From NCBI GenBank assembly GCA_963805675.1, contig CAWDVY010000035.1, positions 78,332 to 142,331 of the forward strand: a stretch of 64,000 nucleotides of DNA. The letters are read 5' to 3'. Under the pieces are notes generated by a model that saw only the letters and a program-made list of their open reading frames with translations, did not search any database and was not told where the DNA came from. This DNA is from an uncultured Actinomycetota bacterium. Its GTDB lineage: Bacteria > Actinomycetota > Actinomycetes > Mycobacteriales > Mycobacteriaceae. Below are positions 3,963 to 17,013 of the stretch, piece after piece (position 1 is the stretch's first letter; every line of letters begins with the position of its first letter). The translations under genes and the position numbers were made by a program.

Positions 3963-4751
3963 TCAGCCGAGCTCACTGACTCGGTCTTCGGCATCGGTGA
4001 CACCGTCGACGTCAGCGGCAGCGGCGCGCAGGAACCACTGCAGTGCCTCGTCGCCGCGGTCGAGCGCCAGCAGCGTCTCCGCGTACGCGTAGCACAGCCG
4101 GGCGGCGATCGCCCCGGTCCGTGTCGGGTCCAGTTGCGGGGTGGACAGGACGGTAAGGGCCTGCTCGAGTTGCCCGAGGTCGGCGCGGGCGCCGGCGACG
4201 ACGATGCGCAGCTCGTCGGCTTCGTCGCCGCTGAGCTTGGCCGCCTCGGGTCCGCGCGCCAGCTCGAGTGCCCGTTCCGGCCGGCCGAGACCGCGTTCGC
4301 AGTCGGCGATCAGCGGAAGCAGCGGAGACTTGCTGCCCATCCTGCGGGCGGCCCGCAGTTCTGCGAGGGCCTGCGACCAATCACCGCACCGGTAGGCTGC
4401 GATGCCGACGGCTTCCCGGACGGCGGCGATGCGGCCAGAGCGGGCCCGCGCGGCGCGGGCATGGTCGAGCGCAGCCTGGGGGTCGTCGTCGATCAACTCC
4501 GCCGCGGCGACCAAGTGGCGGGCCACGGCATCGGCGGTGGCGCGATCCAAAGTGCTGAGCTCCCGGCGGACGTCGGGTGCCAGTTGTTTTGCCTCGATGT
4601 CGGGCGGAATCGGCGGCGCGGTGCGATCCTCATCGGTGGGGCCGTGGTGGGGTTGTCCTCTGCGAGCGCGACCGGGGCCCGAGGTGGGTGCTTCAGAACG
4701 CGGTGCTCGCTTCGGCCGACGTGTCCACTCACCGTGCGTGTTGTCGACCAC
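3963..4751 (-). CDS. TPR-like helical repeat protein (Rv1691-like)
   Basis: REAVGIAAY...ALAELRAARRM, LLPLIADCERGLGRP; position matches the recalled synteny. Confidence 0.85.
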   Translation of the reverse strand: MVDNTHGEWTRRPKRAPRSEAPTSGPGRARRGQPHHGPTDEDRTAPPIPPDIEAKQLAPDVRRELSTLDRATADAVARHLVAAAELIDDDPQAALDHARAARARSGRIAAVREAVGIAAYRCGDWSQALAELRAARRMGSKSPLLPLIADCERGLGRPERALELARGPEAAKLSGDEADELRIVVAGARADLGQLEQALTVLSTPQLDPTRTGAIAARLCYAYAETLLALDRGDEALQWFLRAAAADVDGVTDAEDRVSELG

Positions 4752-4859
4752 TCGTGCCCTTCACCTCGAATTACTCCTGGTCCCTCCTGACAAAGGATAC
4801 GGGCTGCGTGCTGCGCGCCTGAATTCCGCATACGGCGGCAGTCAAACTCGTTGTCCCCG

Positions 4860-5240
4860 TTACAGCACGGCGTCGGCCAGGCGGTCGACCTGGTCCAGCG
4901 AGGCGACGGCGGGATGGAACAGCAGTCGATCGAACCCGAGGTCGTCGTAAGCGCGCACGGTGTCACGCGCCTCTTGCGGTGAGGTGATGATGTCGTCGAC
5001 GTTGAGTTTGGCGTATGCGGGTTTGAACCCGTAGTAGTGAGCCAGGTGCCTGCGGCCGCACTCCGCGACGTGCTCGTCGCCGATCGCAAAGTTCACCGAC
5101 GCATGAGTTTGGGGGTTGCCGGTTCGGCCGGCCTCGCGCCATCCCGCACGGACTCGGTCGGCAAACTCTGACTGCCCGTTGTAATCCCGCAACGCGCCGG
5201 CGACCCAGCCATCTCCGACCGTCGTGGCGCGTCGCAGTGT
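4860..5240 (-). pseudogene. 3' half of an LLM-class flavin/F420-dependent oxidoreductase (5'-truncated)
   Basis: TLRRATTVGDGWVAG...AYDDLGFDRLLFHP...QVDRLADAVL is typical of an LLM C-terminal half. No start codon; it begins abruptly at the 16S fragment. Confidence 0.75.
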
Positions 5241-5270
5241 CCGAGCCAGAATCAAACTCTCCAAACAAAA
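5239..5270 (-). rRNA. Remnant 5' end of 16S rRNA (~30 nt, truncated and mutated)
   Basis: Minus strand TTTTGTTTGGAGAGTTTGATTCTGGCTCGGAC versus the recalled mycobacterial 16S start TTTTGTTTGGAGAGTTTGATCCTGGCTCAGGAC (one substitution, one deletion). Confidence 0.85.
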
Positions 5271-5577
5271 ACAACCCATCCCACAAGACAGGTGAATTCG
5301 AATCAGAAAAATCTGACCTAACAAAAAGACACCAAAAACTGGCATCAAAAACAACCACACCCACACACGGGAATATGCAGACGTGGCCAAAAAACAACAA
5401 CAAAAACAAAACCACCAAACACACTATTGAGTTCTCAAACAACACCCCACCGGCCGCGCAACAAGACCCACGGCTCTTGGCCGCTCACTCGCTGTGCGGA
5501 CGACGAAGGATCCCACCGAAGTGGTGTTTCCCTCTGGGACATCGTCGCGCTCGACGGACCTGCCGCGTCGCGACGAC
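5271..5577 (-). ncRNA. rrn operon 5' leader (pre-16S) with conserved leader/boxA
   Basis: GT-rich minus strand, TGTTGTTTGAGAACTCAATAGTGTGTTTGGT at about 5414-5444, and a CCAC-TTCG-GTGG hairpin at 5513-5524. Confidence 0.85.
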
Positions 5578-5583
5578 TCGCTT

Positions 5584-5612
5584 AAGTTACGTGACAGGAA
5601 ACTCGGAGTCAA
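5584..5612 (-). promoter_or_regulatory. SigA-type rrn promoter
   Basis: TTGACT-17 nt-TAACTT just after the tyrS stop, pointing into the rrn leader. Confidence 0.85.
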
Positions 5613-5649
5613 ACAAGCTGCTAGGCGGCGTGTTTCGGCTGTCTCAAGA

Positions 5650-6925
5650 TCAGCCGACGCGCTCGACGCCGGCGATATTCCGCTTGCCGCGGCGCAGCAC
5701 GAGCCACCGTCCGTGCAGGAAGTCCGTTGGTTGGGGCGCCCAGGCCTCGTCGTCGATCTTGGTGTTGTTGACCGACACGCCGCCCTCGGCGATCGTGCGT
5801 CGCGCAGCCCCTTTGCTTTGCGCCAGCCCGCTCGCGACCAGCAGGTCGACGATCCCGTCCGGGGTACCCGGTTGCAGCTCAGCTATCGAGGTTTCCTGGA
5901 GCGCTGCCCTCAGCGTGGCCTCGTCCAGACGGCTGAGCTCCCCGCGGCCGAACAGTGCTCGGCTCGCATGTTCAACGGCCTCCGTAGCGTGATCGCCGTG
6001 CACCAGCGTCGTGAGCTCGCGCGCCAACCGGCGTTGTGCGGCACGTTCCTGCGGTCGTGCCGCAGTGGCCTCGTCCAGCTCGGATAACTCGTCGGCCGAC
6101 AGAAAGGTGAACCAGCGCAGGTAGCGGATGACGTCGGCATCAGCGGTGTTGACGAAGTACTGGTACCAGGCGTACGGAGTCGTCATTTCCGGGTCCAACC
6201 ACAGGTTGCCGCCGCCGGTGGACTTGCCGAACTTCGTCCCGTCGGCGGCGGTCACCAACGGAACGGTGAGGGCATGCACCGAGGCGGCCAGCTTCTGGCG
6301 CACCAACCGGACGCCGGCGATGATGTTGCCCCACTGATCGGATCCGCCGATCTGCAGCACGCAACGATGACGTTGGTGAAGCTCGACGTAGTCGTTGGCC
6401 TGCAACAGCATGTAGCTGAACTCCGTGTAGGAGATCCCCTCACCCTCCAGCCGTCGCCGAATGGTGTCCCGATCCAGCATCACGTTGACCGAGAAGTGCT
6501 TACCGACGTCGCGCAGCAACTCGATCGCCGACATCGCGCCGGTCCAGTCGAGGTTGTTTTCGACGATGGCGCCCGTTGGTGAGCTGTCGAAGTCGACGAA
6601 GCGCTCGAGCTGTCCACGGATCCGCTCGGTCCATTCCTGGACGATGTCGGCGGTGTTGAGCACCCGCTCGCCAGTTTCGCGCGGGTCGCCGATCAAGCCG
6701 GTTGCGCCGCCGGCAAGAACGATCGGGCCGGTGGCCGGCCCGCTGAAAACGCCTCAGCGCCAACAATGGCACCAGATGCCCGGCATGCAGACTGGGCGCG
6801 GTGGGATCAAATCCCGCGTAAAGAGTGATCGGACCACGGGCCGCCTCGCTGGCGAGCGCGTCGAGGTCGGTCGACTGCGCAATCAGCCCACGCCAGCTCA
6901 GCTCGTCGAGGATTTCAGCGCCCAC
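5650..6925 (-). CDS. tyrS: Tyrosine--tRNA ligase (apparent +1 frameshift at ~6726)
   Basis: [13 protein letters not shown] (HIGH), KFGKS (KMSKS), C-terminal S4 domain. Split over ORFs 6500-6925 and 5650-6696 by one extra base in a short run (CACCGGCCCGATCGTT). Confidence 0.95.
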
Positions 6926-10006: not shown

Positions 10007-12976
10007 TCATTGTGCGCCAGACAACTCTGCCCGCGCAGGACCCGTCAACCGACGGAACTGATTCGCTTCGGCGTCGAAACACCACGCATGCCGTCCCGCC
10101 TTGGGAATCCCGGATGCCCGCAACGCGCTGACCGTCGGACGATAGGTCGCGCTCAACGCCAGCTCCGGTACGACGTGCACGATGTCGGGTCCCAGCCCAA
10201 ACGGCATAGCGGCAACTGCTTCGGTCAGATCCGCTGCCGTGATCGTCGCGCCCGGCCGCGTCGTCACCGCAGTCACCGCGACCTGGTGACCGTCCATCGG
10301 CACCCCGTAGGTCACCGCCAGGTCGACCGCGGGAATCAGCCCGAGCGCGTCCGTGATCGGTTCGCAAAACACAACGCCGCGCTCCGTGCGCACGGTCGAG
10401 CCGCGCCTGCCCACCAACCAGAAGTCGCCGTCGGTGTCGCGACGGAACAGGTACTCGGTGGAGATCCAGGTATCGGCGGGACCGAACACACCGCGTTTGA
10501 CCGACGCGCTCGGATCGATCGGTCCGCGCGGCTCGGCGAGCAGCACACCGACTTCATTCGCTTCCGGGACGCGGACCAGTCCGCTTTCGTCCTCCAGAAT
10601 CAGATCATGCTCGGCGTCATAGGCGCCCAGTTCGACGCGCCCGGCTCCGGGCAACGGCCGGCCCTTGCTGCCGATCTTGACGCCGGACACGTTGGCCAGC
10701 ACCGCATGCCCGTCGGTGGTCGCGAAGAACTCGACGACATGTGCGGGCGCGAACACATCGACGACCCGCTGCCACAGACCGGTCGGCAAACCCGAGCCGA
10801 TGAACAACCGCACCGGGTGATTGCCGTGCAACGCAAATCCCTGGTCGTCGATGACATCGCGGAGCATGGCCCATGTATAGGAGACGACGGTGACGCCGTA
10901 CTGGTGTAGCTCGGCGGCGAATCGGTCGGGTCGCAACCCGCGGGATAACGCGATACGCGTCCCGCCGACCACCGCCCCGCCGAGGCTGACCAGCAGCCCG
11001 GACTCGTGGTGCAGCGGCGTGAGGCAGTACACGGTGTCGGTGCGACCAAGCGCAGCCGCCGAGGCGGTTCCAAAGGCCGACAACGCCCAGCGATAGTTGG
11101 TGATCTGCTTGGCGACGAGCTGCCCGCTGGCGGTGCTGAACCCGATGAACGCGAGATCCCGCGCGTACCCCGGGTTGGGTCGGTACCAGGCCGGGAACTC
11201 GACGGCGTCGGGGTCGATCTGTTCCATGTCGATCACACCGGCGTCATCGGCCAGATGCAGATCGCGGGACTCACCGCCACCGAGGACCAGGATCTGTGCA
11301 GGTAGTTGGCGCGCGGTCTCGAGATTGGTGGGGTCGGTGATGATCTCGGTCACTCCCCCGAGCCGCACCTCTGCAACCAGGTCGGCGTCGGGTTGCAAGA
11401 GGACCGCGACGGCGCCCAACCGCGACAGCGCGGCGATGGCGACAAGTGCGCTCGGCCGGGTTTCCATCAGCACGCCGACGTGTTCGCCCTGGCGCACCCC
11501 GACCGCGATCAGGCCGCGCACCACGTTGTCGATACGCCGGTTCACCGCCTCGTAGGTGTGAACGCGGCCATCGAAGAGCAGGAATTCGCCGTTGGGAGCA
11601 TCGTGCGCCTGTTCGCCGATGATCCGGCCGAGCGAGATCCGGGTGTGGTCGTTGATCTGGCCCAGCCGGGCCAGTCGAGGCAGTGTTCGGACGGTTTCGA
11701 CGGCCAACGTGCGCATGGACCTGTTCGCTGCGACGACGGCGTCGGCCGCGCCGCGGGCGAGGGTCAGCGCCACCTCGGATGCCTCGCCCAGGCCGTGCAT
11801 CAGCCGCGAGCTGAGCGCGACACCGCGGTCGGTGCTCTCCGCCGCCTGATCCGCCATCGGGAAGATGTCCGTGGGCTTATCGCCGTTCCCGGAAATCCAC
11901 AGCACCCAATCGGCGACAGTTGGCCAAGTCTCCTGTGCCGCTCTGGATCCGACGACCAGACCGAAATGACCCGTGCGCAGCGTGTATTCGTAGACCTCGG
12001 CATTGGGCGCTGCGCGCCGGATACCGCGCACCGCGGGCGGCTGACCGATGTCGTCAACCTCGCCGACGAAAGCCAGTACCGGGCAAATGATGTCGGTCAG
12101 CGTCACCAGTTGACCGTTGATGGCGAAACCGCCGGTCATCATCCGGTTGTGCGCGATGAACTGCTTGAGCAGCTCGGAGACTGCCGGGCCGGACCACGCG
12201 ATCCAGCCTTCCGACTGCAGGAATCTGCGTTGGGCTTCTCGTGGCAGCAGCGCCTCGCGGTCGTGCAGTTGGCGCACGAAATCGATCCGCGCTTTCGCGG
12301 TCTTGAGCGGATCAAGCATCTGAAAACCGGTGCGCGCCAACCAACTTGGGATATCCAACCGGTTGAAGACGTGGTCGGCCATGAAATTAGCAGCACCGGC
12401 GGCGAGGTTGGGCGGAATACCCATCGGCAGCGCAGCCAGGGTGTCTACCGGCGCGCCGAAGGTAACAATACTGGCGATGCTCTTCGAGCGTCGGTAGGCC
12501 GCCGCCTGGTAGCAGAACATCCCGCCCTGTGAATAGCCGGCCAGGTGCACATCCTGACCGGTGATTTCTGCGATCAGGTCAAGCGCCTCGCTCAGCGCAA
12601 CGATGTGGTCGGCCAGATTCCGGCGCATACCACCCTCGACCTGATCGGGTGAGCCGAAGTCGATGACCCAGGGATCCAGCCCGGCGGCGTGCAGGATGCC
12701 GACCGCCCCCTCCTCCCGGGTTACATCCCACATGGTCGCCGACATCATCATCGGGTGCACCAGCAGCGTCGGCGGACCGGCCTGCGGCTGAGCCGGGCGG
12801 CTATCGGGTGGGAAGTATCGCCGAAGCTTGTACATCGGCACGCTCTCCACGACCTGGGACGGCGACGGAGAGTTACCGGTTTCCAGGCCGCCGAGTCGCA
12901 AAACTTCCAGGCCGTTCTGTGCTGTCGCCATCAGCCGCTCGACCGGTCGCGTAATCGCTGAAAGATGCAGATCCAC
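10007..12976 (-). CDS. Alpha/beta-hydrolase fused to acyl-CoA synthetase (Rv1683-like)
   Basis: N-terminal PhaC-like hydrolase (GYSQGG, GH) and C-terminal AMP-binding domain; 989 aa. Confidence 0.9.
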   Translation of the reverse strand: MDLHLSAITRPVERLMATAQNGLEVLRLGGLETGNSPSPSQVVESVPMYKLRRYFPPDSRPAQPQAGPPTLLVHPMMMSATMWDVTREEGAVGILHAAGLDPWVIDFGSPDQVEGGMRRNLADHIVALSEALDLIAEITGQDVHLAGYSQGGMFCYQAAAYRRSKSIASIVTFGAPVDTLAALPMGIPPNLAAGAANFMADHVFNRLDIPSWLARTGFQMLDPLKTAKARIDFVRQLHDREALLPREAQRRFLQSEGWIAWSGPAVSELLKQFIAHNRMMTGGFAINGQLVTLTDIICPVLAFVGEVDDIGQPPAVRGIRRAAPNAEVYEYTLRTGHFGLVVGSRAAQETWPTVADWVLWISGNGDKPTDIFPMADQAAESTDRGVALSSRLMHGLGEASEVALTLARGAADAVVAANRSMRTLAVETVRTLPRLARLGQINDHTRISLGRIIGEQAHDAPNGEFLLFDGRVHTYEAVNRRIDNVVRGLIAVGVRQGEHVGVLMETRPSALVAIAALSRLGAVAVLLQPDADLVAEVRLGGVTEIITDPTNLETARQLPAQILVLGGGESRDLHLADDAGVIDMEQIDPDAVEFPAWYRPNPGYARDLAFIGFSTASGQLVAKQITNYRWALSAFGTASAAALGRTDTVYCLTPLHHESGLLVSLGGAVVGGTRIALSRGLRPDRFAAELHQYGVTVVSYTWAMLRDVIDDQGFALHGNHPVRLFIGSGLPTGLWQRVVDVFAPAHVVEFFATTDGHAVLANVSGVKIGSKGRPLPGAGRVELGAYDAEHDLILEDESGLVRVPEANEVGVLLAEPRGPIDPSASVKRGVFGPADTWISTEYLFRRDTDGDFWLVGRRGSTVRTERGVVFCEPITDALGLIPAVDLAVTYGVPMDGHQVAVTAVTTRPGATITAADLTEAVAAMPFGLGPDIVHVVPELALSATYRPTVSALRASGIPKAGRHAWCFDAEANQFRRLTGPARAELSGAQ

Positions 12977-13076
12977 TTACTGCCTTCCCTGACTGCCTGC
13001 ACATCATGGCACATCGCTGCGGTTGGGCCCGCCGCTTTGGTCACCGCGTGGACCCATCGTTAGGCTGGGCCCGCCG

Positions 13077-13507
13077 GCGCACCTGCTCGGCGCCGAGGCC
13101 TGTGCACCTGGAATACCCGAATCAGGTCGTCTTCGAATTGCTGACCGTGGAGTGAACGACGGCGACCGCATCGGCATTGTAGGACGAAACGGGGACGGCA
13201 AATCCATGCCTGCTGGGTTTGCTCACCGGTGCGGTGTGCCCGGATTTCGGCCGCGCGTCACCCGCTGGAGCGGGTTGTGGGTAGGCGCGCTGAGCCGGAC
13301 CAATACTCTCGACTCGCGCCATACCGTCGGCTGGACGCTGGTCGGCGATCAATCCGAACGCCAGTGGGCGTCCAACCCGCACATCCGCGGCCTGGTTGAT
13401 GGGCTAGTATCCGACATCGGTTGCGATACAACGGTTGCCACGTTATTCGGCCGCCAACGACGAAGGGTCCAGCTGGTCGGCGACCGGGATTATGATCGCG
13501 CTGGACG
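13077..13507 (+). pseudogene. Decayed 5' fragment of an ABC-F gene (paralog of 18078-19856)
   Basis: Aligns by eye with ~18081-18520 (gcgcacctgctcggcgccgagg..., gacggcgaccgcatcggc..., atcgcgctggacg); start codon lost, several indels. Confidence 0.85.
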
Positions 13508-13726
13508 CCATCGATCACCGGCAGCCCCGGCGTCGGTGGACCCGAACGCTCCTGCCCGGCGGAACCGGATCCCACAGCAAACACGGGCGTGGACTCCGGC
13601 CCGGTCACCGTATGCCCATCACCAACCGCCCGGCTCGCGAGCCTCCGCCTCCGTGGCCCGACAAGCGGGCATCACTTCCGTAGGGGCCCTGCGGGAGGGG
13701 CGCCCGAAGCTGCTGCGACTCGCGAT

Positions 13727-14917
13727 TCAGAACGCGCTTGAGAAGTCTCCGACGAGGTTGGGTAGGAGGTCGATAGGCAGCAGTGAGGTGATGTTGGCCG
13801 GGTCCAGGAATGTGCTGAGGCTGCCGCCATCGAAAATTGAGCTGAGGTCCGACAACACCGTGCTGGGGTTCAGCACTGAGGTGATGTCCGTCAGCATTGT
13901 GCCGGGGTCCACAGCAGCCGCGCTGCTCGCGGCCGGCGTGATCGCTTGCGCGATGTCTTCAGCCAAACCCAGCAGCGCCCCAATTGGCCCGTCCTGCGCG
14001 GAAAGAAGGCCAAAGAGGCTATCTGAGGGCACCCCGTTGAGGAAGGCGTCCGCGAGTGTGGTCGGGGCAAGGGCAAAGTTTTGCAAGATCGCCGCGAAGT
14101 TCCCGGTGTCCACCGCGTTGACAAGGTTATTGCCGATACCCCCGATCGCCCATACGACGGAAGCTGCTGGCTCGATAAGACCGAGAATCGGAAGCAAGCT
14201 GTCTCCGAGCCCCGTGCTGACAGCAGCCGACAGATTCGCGAAGGGCGTCTCGACAGCGGTTTCGAGCGCGCTTATGAGAGGAAAAAGCTGGAGGAGCGGG
14301 TCAAGGAAGAGGTAGTCGATGACAAGGTTAAACAGCCCGTCTTGGATGTCGCCGGAACTGAAATCCATCCACACACTTTGGAGATTCCCTGGCAGTTCCG
14401 TGGTCACGTACGAAACCAGGTTCTGGACACTCTCTTGGGCCGCCGCGCCGATAGCGGTGAAGCTAGCCACCTGGTTGTCGAGGATCTGGGTGAGTATCGG
14501 GAACGGAGCCGCGAGGAACTATTGTGCGAGCCCCTGAAGGCTAGCCACGGTATCCGTGAAAAGCTGCACCGGCCCGACGAGGGTGTAAGGGGTGGGATCC
14601 GCGAGGTTGAACAGTCCGGCGAAGGGGTCGAACAGATCGCCGAGGTTCAGTGACCCGCCCGAGCCCGACAGCTCGGCGAGGGGATTCAGGAGGTCACCAA
14701 TGGGGCCCGACGCTCCTCCGGCTCCACTCACGGCATTTTCTAATCCACCAACAATGCCCGGTACATCGTCGAGGAGGCCTTCGGCGGCGGACAGCTGTAC
14801 TACGGGCACCCGGATGTCGGCTAGCGGTGGTGCCACCGGCGTGACGGCGATGAGGCTGGCGCCTGCAACAGCGACACCGACGGTGACGTAACGACGCGCG
14901 GCTAGCTCGATACCCAT
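13727..14917 (-). pseudogene. GjpA-like mycobacterial outer-envelope/porin-type protein with one in-frame TAG at 14519-14521
   Basis: N-terminus MGIELAARRYVTVGVAVAGASLIAVTPVAPP; ORFs 14519-15103 and 13727-14470 share a frame, separated by CAA-TAG-TTC (LAQ*FLAAPFPIL). Confidence 0.65.
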
Positions 14918-15112
14918 CTCTTGTCCGGTCTTGTCTGGCTGGACCACTTTGACGACCTTCACGACGGAATGCATCGGATCATGCCTGAGAGTAACGTGAG
15001 AAACAACACATACGCCCAATAAATATCCCGGTGCTGCCAACGAAACGGCCTGGCCCATGTTTACCGGTTCGTTTGCGCGCCATGGGTGAGGCAGCCGGCG
15101 CAATGTCCGCCG

Positions 15113-15432
<320 letters not shown>

Positions 15433-15610
15433 TCAAGGGTGCCTTTGGAATGGAAAATGCGCTGCTTACTGACCCATCAGCCAAGCTCAAAGCCATCGAT
15501 GCTGTAATCCCGAGGGATGGGACTCGTGCGTCACCATGGCGTTCGACGTAGTCCATAAGTCGGCGGAACCCTTCCTCCTACCGGTCGGCGCGCGGGGTCG
15601 CCGCCTGTAG

Positions 15611-16291
15611 TCAGCGACCGCCGCGTTGGCGACGATTGGGGGCGGGTTCCTGTTGCGGTGGATCCGAGACGAGTTCGCGGAACTTGGACATCATTTCGTC
15701 GAGTAGGGCCAGCGCCAGTGTGCGTGTGTGTGGTGGATCGTTGGACCCCGCGATCTCAAACGACAGCTCGGTGAGCGCTCCGTGCATTGTGGCGGTCAAC
15801 ATGACGGGTGAATGCTTGATCAGGCCCGCAGCGACGAAGCTGCCGATTACTTCGCGGATGACGTCTTCGAAGTTGTCCCGGTAACGTTCGCGCCATCGCT
15901 GCCATCCGACTGCCGCGGGGGCTTCCTTCAAGACCACCGCCTGGTATTCCACTTCGGTGTAGACGTCGAGGAGCACCACGATGGCCGCCCGCGCCTGCCC
16001 CCATGGATCACCGTGATCGGCGAGAGCATCTGCTACGCGGCTGACGCCATCGCTTTGCAGACTGTCGAATATCGCCATGAATAGCCCCAGTTTGCTGCCG
16101 AAGTGGTGTTGCAGCGCACCGCGGGTGACTCCGGCCCGTACACAGATCTGCAGACCGGTGATCTCAGGGTAGGGCTGGGTAGCGAACAGCTCCCGGCCCG
16201 CTTGCATGATCACCTGCCGGGTCGCTTCTGCGTTCCTGTCGCGTCGCGTACTGGCCGGTGTCAAGGTGCGCCTCACACATCTATCGTTCAC
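15611..16291 (-). CDS. TetR family regulator (accessory)
   Basis: HTH ITGLQICVRAGVTRGALQHHFGSKLGLF; likely leaderless GTG at 16291 (alternative ATG 16294). Confidence 0.88.
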   Translation of the reverse strand: MNDRCVRRTLTPASTRRDRNAEATRQVIMQAGRELFATQPYPEITGLQICVRAGVTRGALQHHFGSKLGLFMAIFDSLQSDGVSRVADALADHGDPWGQARAAIVVLLDVYTEVEYQAVVLKEAPAAVGWQRWRERYRDNFEDVIREVIGSFVAAGLIKHSPVMLTATMHGALTELSFEIAGSNDPPHTRTLALALLDEMMSKFRELVSDPPQQEPAPNRRQRGGR

Positions 16292-16550
16292 CATGAACGA
16301 TAGATTCGCAGTGAATATCGGTTGTGAATGGTCCTGAGTAAATTCTGGCATCCAGCGTGGCGATCGAGCGCTAAGCGCCGGCCGCGCTGAGGTGATGCCA
16401 GTGTCAAGGCGCGCCTCACATATGCTAACGTTCACTGTGAATGCTAGATTCGTAGTGAACGTTGATTGTGGATGGTCTTTGGCCTTTGAGGAATTCCGGC
16501 ATCCAGTGTGGCGGTCGAGCGCTAAGCGCCGGCCGCGCTGAGGTGATGCC
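16254..16550. repeat. Imperfect tandem duplication (~143-151 bp, two copies plus the start of a third)
   Basis: Copies start at 16254 (gccggtgtcaagg) and 16397 (gccagtgtcaagg). A 36-bp stretch is identical at 16364-16399 and 16515-16550. Confidence 0.9.
16279..16305. promoter_or_regulatory. Perfect 12-bp inverted repeat (candidate TetR operator containing TATCGT -10 boxes on both strands)
   Basis: ATCTATCGTTCA-CCA-TGAACGATAGAT, overlapping the TetR start. Confidence 0.7.
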
Positions 16551-16596
16551 GGCGTGAATCTATTGGTCTGCCCGCTTGCGTGTCGGTGGAGGTGGC

Positions 16597-17013
16597 GTGC
16601 TCGGCCCCGGAGAGCTTGAGCTTAAGCAAAAGCTGCAGATAAAGCCCGGCCGAAGCGTGGCCGTGGTCAATGCGCCACCCGAATCGGGGTTGAGGCTGCG
16701 AACGGCTGGTGGCCCGAACCCGGATCGGGCTGATGTGGTCATTGGCTTTGCAGTCCGGCCCGCGGACCTGGCATGGCTCAGGTCCGTATATGCGGCCGCC
16801 CGCGCTGGCCGCCTGGCCTGGGTCAGCTACCCCAAACGCGGACAGCCGGGCACCGATCTTCGCCGGGACTGGCTAGTCCGAGCCCTTCGCCAATACGACG
16901 TTGAGGCGGTCCAGGACGTGTCGATCAACGGCACCTGGTCAGCACTGCGGCTGCGCCCGGCCAAGGCTGACCACCAACCCGACACTTCCAGGGCTAACAA
17001 GGACAGCAAGTGA
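16597..17013 (+). CDS. DUF3052-like protein
   Basis: GGAGG RBS; LKQKLQIKPG...WVSYPK...DLRRD...VSINGTWSALRLRP. Confidence 0.65.
   Translation: MLGPGELELKQKLQIKPGRSVAVVNAPPESGLRLRTAGGPNPDRADVVIGFAVRPADLAWLRSVYAAARAGRLAWVSYPKRGQPGTDLRRDWLVRALRQYDVEAVQDVSINGTWSALRLRPAKADHQPDTSRANKDSK

Follow-up and report, generated by a model that had tools for sequence, protein, structure and literature searches.

We analyzed a 64,000-nucleotide (nt) stretch of DNA from an uncultured member of the Mycobacteriaceae (GenBank assembly GCA_963805675.1, contig CAWDVY010000035.1, positions 78,332 to 142,331), referred to here as the window. On its minus strand, just downstream of the tyrosyl-tRNA synthetase gene tyrS, lie the promoter and leader of the ribosomal RNA (rRNA) operon rrnB and the first nucleotides of a 16S rRNA gene. 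These run straight into the 3′ part of a luciferase-like monooxygenase (LLM) gene, denoted LLM′, which is followed by genes for a TPR-like protein, a HAD phosphatase, TlyA, PpnK and RecN (Table 1). The locus is probably the scar of a recent, lineage-specific rrnB deletion in an uncultured environmental Mycobacterium of soil or peat, which left the P1 rrnB promoter (P1) and leader in place and LLM′ as a pseudogene. An earlier interpretation made from the letters of this DNA, the sequence-only reading, had named a promoter, leader, BoxA element and 16S stub 3′ of tyrS; all of them lie on the minus strand as listed in Table 1. It had also described the promoter and leader as pointing into the co-oriented TPR-HAD-tlyA-ppnK-recN genes, and they do.

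Promoter, leader and 16S stub downstream of tyrS

For comparison, 80 tyrS loci were taken from other Mycobacteriaceae genomes. A complete 16S-23S-5S operon stood directly 3′ of tyrS in 10 of the 80, and 4 more showed a partial 16S gene at the contig end. Another 23 contigs ended 140–470 nt past tyrS, the usual sign of an rrn repeat, and 43 loci lacked rrnB. The window was aligned with 11 intact tyrS-linked leaders, an alignment across species that had been named beforehand as a check. The −35 element (TTTGACTC), the −10 element (GTAACTT) and a 33-nt block of the CL2 motif were invariant in 12/12 sequences, window included, which bears the sequence-only reading out on this point. A profile of 14 intact rrnB leaders matched the region at E=1e-113, a sequence similarity far beyond chance. 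The core of CL2 and BoxA, TGTTGTTTGAGAACTCAATAGTGTGTTTGGT, matched exactly at 5444–5414; it occurs once in the window and had 0 matches in 100 shuffles.

In mycobacteria, rrnB sits 3′ of tyrS with a single SigA-type promoter, P1 rrnB, and CL2 is a putative BoxA antitermination element conserved in both rrnA and rrnB leaders (PMC10218544). The element in the window is likewise adjacent to tyrS and co-oriented with it (tyrS stop at 5650, −35 at 5612, same strand), as in the 14 rrnB-bearing loci. It carries one predicted SigA-type promoter (TTGACT-17-TAACTT) and the exact CL2 match in its leader. By sequence, it is a bona fide P1 rrnB promoter and leader. A predicted BoxA element for Nus-factor recruitment is present and invariant, with putative binding of NusB/NusE. 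The 16S, 23S and 5S genes themselves are missing from the window. Since only 28–32 nt of 16S are retained and there are no rRNA genes, the element is a relic and not an operon.

The pre-16S leader is complete at ~310 nt. The terminator-like T-tract hairpins in its 3′ part are ordinary features of rrn leaders. The 16S-like stretch TTTTGTTTGGAGAGTTTGATTCTGGCTCGGAC occupies 5270–5239, and rRNA similarity ends there. Rfam at gathering thresholds matched neither rRNA nor any other family in the whole 64-kb window, the stub being too short for a match, and a permissive Rfam scan of 4700–5700 gave chance matches only. A simple sigma-70 scan did not flag P1 because TAACTT fits only 3/6 TATAAT positions and the scan needs at least 4; conservation is what identifies P1 as a promoter here. 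Duplex energies between leader and spacer, calculated for the 16S processing stem in two intact relatives (L001 and L004), were no better than those of shuffles (z −0.4 to 0.9), and the 3′ partner of this stem lies in the deleted span. Exact look-up of the 176-aa open reading frame (ORF) that crosses the junction returned no record.

Table 1. Features of the rrnB relic and its surroundings, in window positions
Feature	Position	Strand	Remarks
tyrS (tyrosyl-tRNA synthetase)	5650..6925	minus	stop TGA 5652-5650; marker gene upstream of rrnB operons
Spacer, tyrS stop to −35	5613..5649	minus	37 nt; left breakpoint of allele B between 5626 and 5625
P1 rrnB promoter	5584..5612	minus	−35 TTGACT 5612-5607, 17-nt spacer, −10 TAACTT 5589-5584
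Predicted P1 rrnB start site	near 5577	minus	position predicted from the promoter
rrnB-specific 5′ leader (hypervariable promoter-proximal region)	5448..5583	minus	aligns to intact rrnB leaders
CL2 motif and putative BoxA antitermination element	5412..5447	minus	rrnA leader shares sequence from 5447 on
GT-rich 3′ leader, CL2 to 16S start	5271..5411	minus	polymorphic: T6/T7 ~5395, C/T 5383
First 28 nt of 16S rRNA (TTTTGTTTGGAGAGTTTGATTCTGGCTC)	5243..5270	minus	same as 16S 5′ end of L001 and L006
Deletion junction	5239..5242	minus	G5242 plus GAC 5241-5239 (3-nt microhomology common to 16S and LLM parents)
LLM′ (LLM fragment, C-terminal 126 codons + stop)	4860..5240	minus	in frame; TAA 4862-4860
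TPR-like protein gene	3963..4751	minus	first intact gene 3′ of the relic; ORF with weak TPR matches; presumably Rv1691-like
HAD phosphatase	~3961-2957	minus	co-oriented; a 58-aa ORF comes next
tlyA	2751-1942	minus	co-oriented with the relic
ppnK	1945-1022	minus	co-oriented; then recN, running off the window

Two side observations concern variation in these elements. The 16S 5′ end reads AGAGTTTGATTCTGG, not the textbook GATCCTGG, in 7/11 tyrS-linked operons, including that of an isolate genome. The carriers of this variant, which falls at window position 5250, are L001, L006, L038, L045, L053, L065 and L069. Because this position falls within the universal 27F primer site, the variant would go unseen in 16S sequences obtained by PCR. 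The relic leader has a two-state haplotype at 5395/5383, T6 with CAC or T7 with CAT, and two contigs (L084, L088) break exactly there. The two states could mean that the rrnA leader differs here from that of the relic, or that gene conversion has taken place between the two.

The deletion junction and its age

Four related species (L004, L109, L110 and L111) keep the ancestral order tyrS-rrnB-AsnC-SDR-LLM-TPR; the last three surfaced through a protein search with the 104-aa product of a second deletion allele (allele B, below). In L004, tyrS is followed by rrnB (11440–16591), a terminator hairpin (16605–16637) and genes for an AsnC/Lrp-type regulator, an SDR, a 285-aa LLM and the TPR-like protein. 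Window 5241–4867 corresponds to L004 19040–19414, and the similarity of the window to all close relatives stops exactly at 5239. Compared with L004, the window is without ~7.6 kb, comprising 16S from nt ~30 on, 23S, 5S and the terminator. The same deletion took the AsnC/Lrp-type regulator, the SDR and the first ~160 LLM codons. What remains, LLM′, covers only positions 178–252 of the 314-position PF00296 profile, against 25–248 in the 285-aa L004 homolog, and falls short of a full-length TIM barrel.

At the junction the parental sequences are ...GGCTCAGGAC|GAACG for 16S and ...AAAGCGAC|ACTGCG for LLM, and the product is GGCTC-GGAC|ACTGCG. They share a 3-nt microhomology, GAC (5241–5239), next to which one base was lost or replaced; G5242 is either derived from 16S after the loss of one A or a filler base. 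The ancestor, with tyrS, P1 and the rrnB leader, 16S-23S-5S, terminator, AsnC-type regulator, SDR, LLM and TPR, underwent one illegitimate joining across GAC, fusing 16S nt ~30 to LLM codon ~160 with the loss of ~7.6 kb. This end-joining signature would fit nonhomologous end joining or replication slippage, not recombination between rrn copies. The sequence-only reading had counted two differences from 16S and spoken of ~30 nt of mutated 16S. Since 9 Illumina-type contigs show both differences identically, they are genuine bases and not the product of indel errors. One, the T in GATTCTGG, is a natural variant seen in 7/11 intact operons. The second, a missing A specific to the relic, sits at the junction itself. 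With one of the two changes a natural variant, "mutated" overstates the decay.

Contigs of the same species were found by exact look-up of the TPR-like, PpnK and TlyA products in NCBI metagenome-assembled genomes (MAGs) and metagenomes, Logan, ENA and JGI. The TPR-like protein was identical on 13 contigs. The junction string was identical in L081–L086, L088–L090 and L106, which come from ~10 different assemblies or runs. L085 follows the window collinearly, beginning upstream of tyrS and extending past the junction into the HAD gene; L107, from another sample, joins tyrS to P1 and the leader. These contigs bear on the possibility of an assembly artefact, in which a collapsed or mis-joined rRNA repeat would conceal a full rrnB after tyrS. 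There are grounds for such a suspicion: rrn operons often break or confuse assemblies, many tyrS contigs stop 250–470 nt after tyrS, two contigs linked to murA look chimeric (L081, L082), and the window consensus merged a tyrS polymorphism. We nevertheless find an artefact hardly credible. The same junction recurs in contigs of ~10 other assemblies and samples, and the base loss next to it is reproduced in every contig. Moreover, the junction sits within the rrn repeat, not at its edge, and joins unique DNA 7.6 kb away, and a ~200-nt repeat is no obstacle for the 0.2–1 Mb contig from which the window appears to come. The identical junction across assemblies and the join to unique DNA largely rule out a collapsed repeat. 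The proposal of a genuine tyrS-linked rrnB relic, formed by a real deletion into the middle of another gene, thus stands.

The assembly had also been suspected of being indel-prone, and here it is not notably so. At the apparent tyrS frameshift (6724/6723) the window reads GA, L107 reads G, and L085 and L093 read A, a Val/Ile polymorphism. The window consensus seems to have merged two strain variants, giving an extra base. tyrS is intact with 424 aa in L085, L093 and L107, and the merged G/A polymorphism together with these intact copies rules out tyrS as a real pseudogene.

The age of the deletion was judged from the leader and from the conspecific copies. Of 168 alignment columns that do not vary among the intact leaders (n = 11), one is changed in the window, a G to T near 5367, leaving aside one edge column and the junction. 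In a relative-rate comparison with L001, unique changes numbered 7 vs 6 in the leader and 176 vs 192 in 7.4 kb of flank. Copies with the window's deletion (allele A) are nearly invariant over 2.6 kb. Three contigs that keep upstream LLM sequence (L087, L091 and L092) are 99.1–99.6% identical downstream and have six distinguishing variants in common. Because the deleted alleles are almost invariant and the leader is without excess change, the deletion is recent, and the word "fossil" used in the sequence-only reading does not suit it.

That reading had further taken the locus to record the rrnB deletion of slow growers, that is, to be an ancient scar of an ancestral loss common to slow-growing mycobacteria. 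Named slow growers in our sample do lack rrnB after tyrS: M. szulgai, M. asiaticum, M. interjectum, M. europaeum, M. palustre, M. colombiense, M. parascrofulaceum and M. uberis all belong to the rrnB-less loci. On a neighbour-joining tree of tyrS, however, these loci form a separate large clade, L016 excepted. The window is sister to L001, which has an intact rrnB, and every other locus in the clade around it either has rrnB or ends at it. A leader-profile search of the 43 rrnB-less loci found no trace of a relic (best E=2.7), so that relics of this kind are not general among rrnB-less species; the leader in the window shows no decay. Tree position, closest relatives that all bear an intact rrnB, the undecayed leader and the lack of relics elsewhere rule out an ancient slow-grower relic, to which we assign next to no probability. 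The deletion is thus recent, confined to this lineage and not connected with the lack of rrnB in classical slow growers.

The exceptional locus L016 is rrnB-less, with 142 nt between tyrS and the TPR-like gene, and groups on the rrnB-bearing side of the tyrS tree. It may be another independent rrnB loss, as far as a single-gene tree, which is weak, can suggest.

Two deletion alleles and the fate of the relic

A 37-kb JGI contig, L093, shares 98.8% identity with the window upstream of tyrS and 99.5% downstream of the junction. It also lacks rrnB, with breakpoints that differ from those of the window, and its promoter and leader are gone as well. L093 follows the window to 5626, 24 nt past the tyrS stop and 13 nt before the −35, and resumes in the 3′ part of the AsnC-type gene at ~L004 16780. 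It retains AsnC′, the 3′ half of SDR, LLM with a +A frameshift, and TPR. A second internal deletion (~5838/5841 in L093) fused the AsnC-type gene to the SDR 3′ half (L004 17560 to 18205). The AsnC|SDR junction and the LLM frameshift are also found in L091 and L099, and the frameshift in L087; LLM is intact in L092, whose upstream state lies beyond the reach of the contig. The protein search with the 104-aa product of allele B yielded no exact copy of it.

Allele A, that of the window, keeps the promoter and leader, and allele B keeps AsnC′, SDR′ and the N-terminal part of LLM. No deletion could turn one allele into the other, so an rrnB-bearing ancestor lost the operon on at least two occasions. 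The two losses appear independent and fall within ~1% sequence divergence in one species. A search for an rrnB-bearing strain of the species found none, and L092 (intact LLM) and L107 (tyrS-P1-leader) are too short to tell.

Separately, the whole gene block that follows rrnB is eroding in this species, as seen in the AsnC|SDR fusion and the LLM frameshift, with LLM intact in L092.

Within allele A, LLM′ is itself changing. Seven contigs form a sub-lineage with +T at 5067 and a C-to-G change (5067–5065), which cause a frameshift; the window, L088 and L090 keep the ancestral reading at 5067–5065. LLM′ is best described from these alleles as a decaying pseudogene fragment.

The GC-rich terminator that follows 5S in the relatives falls within the deleted span. 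Between the junction at 5239 and the TPR start at 4751 a scan found no terminator-like site, and a sliding-window hairpin search from the junction to the TPR gene detected only GC-driven local structure with no U-tract, which we do not read as a terminator. Because the operon terminator was deleted, transcription could plausibly run on into TPR-HAD-tlyA-ppnK-recN. In M. smegmatis the rrnB promoter is strong enough to have served for overexpression (PMC2764107). P1 would most likely still fire near 5577 and give a leader-LLM′ transcript, which the BoxA antitermination signal would help to run through LLM′ into TPR-HAD-tlyA-ppnK-recN. Such read-through is best regarded as a side effect of the deletion and not as a function under selection. 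Allele B is without promoter and leader, and the downstream genes therefore do not require them.

Allele B and the recency of the deletion also bear on two functional interpretations of the relic. The orphan P1 and its antitermination leader might have been co-opted, selection favouring strong, growth-rate-coupled expression of TPR-HAD-tlyA-ppnK-recN. The promoter, CL2/BoxA and whole leader are unaltered, no new terminator replaces the lost one before the TPR gene, and allele A was recovered more often than allele B. Recency, however, fully explains the lack of decay, allele B keeps the same downstream genes with neither promoter nor leader, an invariant −10 base is mutated in L107, and LLM′ is visibly decaying, so we consider co-option unlikely. 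Less likely still is a leader-only RNA, a short BoxA transcript that would titrate Nus factors or RNA polymerase and so tune the remaining rrnA operon. The intact BoxA-like CL2 and the T-tract hairpins within the leader would suit such an RNA, but no terminator sets a discrete leader RNA apart from downstream sequence, hairpins of this kind are ordinary in all rrn leaders and normally read through, no Rfam family matches, and allele B does without the leader. A broader adaptive account is also unlikely in our view: that both rrnB losses were favoured by lower rRNA dosage in peat, soil or wood, with the allele A promoter captured for TlyA, NAD kinase and RecN. If true, protein-coding genes would here have come under an rRNA promoter by natural rewiring, and the two alleles would offer a natural experiment.

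Several points weigh against our main interpretation, that of a recent rrnB deletion, a second loss in allele B and a P1 that would still fire. The murA-linked MAG or metagenome contigs, L081/L094/L102 (JBKQKE010000011.1) and L082 (JBLFKZ010041424.1), pass from the atp operon and murA through the rrnA promoter region straight into the relic leader and continue into LLM′ and the TPR-to-recN genes. CL2 begins at 5447, which is exactly where they join the window; breaks at 5447/5445 occur in three further contigs. The rrnB-specific 5′ leader is not present in L081 and L082; in the window, L085 and L107 it follows on from tyrS without a break. L081 and L082 are probably short-read chimeras through the ~200-nt CL2-to-16S repeat common to the rrnA leader and the relic. 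Were the murA-relic junction genuine, a gene order like that of M. tuberculosis would imply a deletion of several hundred kb including tyrS. L085 carries the allele A junction, and upstream of ~6540 (compared over 7655–6539) it has ~20 variants in common with the allele B contig L093, with only 6 differences from the window downstream, at 6539–2762. This mosaic reflects either recombination between lineages inside tyrS or strain-switching in a metagenome contig, and L085 is therefore no clean single-strain witness. The left junction of allele B comes from one contig, L093; since no repeat begins or ends there, a mis-join is less likely. L107 (Logan SRR11576985, 99.1% identical) has T5584G, giving TAACTG in place of the invariant −10 TAACTT. 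It may be an orphan promoter starting to decay or a strain that still has rrnB; as the sequence stops within CL2, it does not show which allele the strain carries. rrnB might conceivably have been translocated elsewhere in the genome. Finally, P1 activity and read-through are what we infer from sequence.

Relation to known systems

The number of rRNA operons is a classic life-history trait, and the possession of one or two operons by mycobacteria has long been discussed together with growth rate. The present locus catches an operon loss soon after the event, with breakpoints at base level, the ancestral layout and two deletion alleles in one species. The loss would have come about through illegitimate end-joining and not through recombination of one rrn copy with another, and rrnB loss recurs outside the classical slow growers. 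The contrast between the orphan promoter and leader of allele A and their absence from allele B can be used to test the effect of the element. For binning and synteny there is a warning, in that the ~200-nt leader repeat of rrnA and the relic yields chimeric MAG contigs linking murA to the tlyA region. These results are relevant to mycobacterial rRNA regulation and to rrn copy number as an ecological trait.

In the searchable literature we found no natural rrnB relic with an orphan promoter and leader, and no parallel rrnB loss within one species. The locus adds a new case to the known events in which a lost gene leaves a scar. Single-operon strains of M. smegmatis, which form the background to PMC2094070, have reportedly been engineered by deleting one rrn operon. 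Those strains and the relic lineage alike indicate that a mycobacterium is viable without rrnB; the engineered deletions were made in the laboratory, whereas the deletion in the window is natural, polymorphic in the environment and left promoter and leader behind.

In M. tuberculosis, which was not among the 43 rrnB-less loci searched for a leader relic, the small RNA G2 is encoded in the tyrS-lprJ intergenic region (PMC2764107). The G2 region resembles the relic in its chromosomal position, in a non-coding transcript and in belonging to a species without rrnB, but by its mapped ends G2 lies on the strand opposite to tyrS (PMC2764107). In M. marinum, rrn copy number varies between strains by tandem duplication adjoining rrnA (PMC6089878). 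As in the species of the window, rRNA operon number thus varies within one species (PMC6089878); M. marinum gains a copy near rrnA, whereas the window species lost its tyrS-linked rrnB twice, with different breakpoints. Closest in structure are the rrnB operons of M. smegmatis, M. celatum and M. kumamotonense, which like the relic lie directly 3′ of tyrS and co-oriented with it, with a single SigA-type promoter, CL2 with a putative BoxA and then a GT-rich leader to the 16S start (PMC10218544). In contrast to those operons (PMC10218544), the window has lost the operon body, and its leader continues into the truncated monooxygenase gene and, beyond that, into protein-coding genes.

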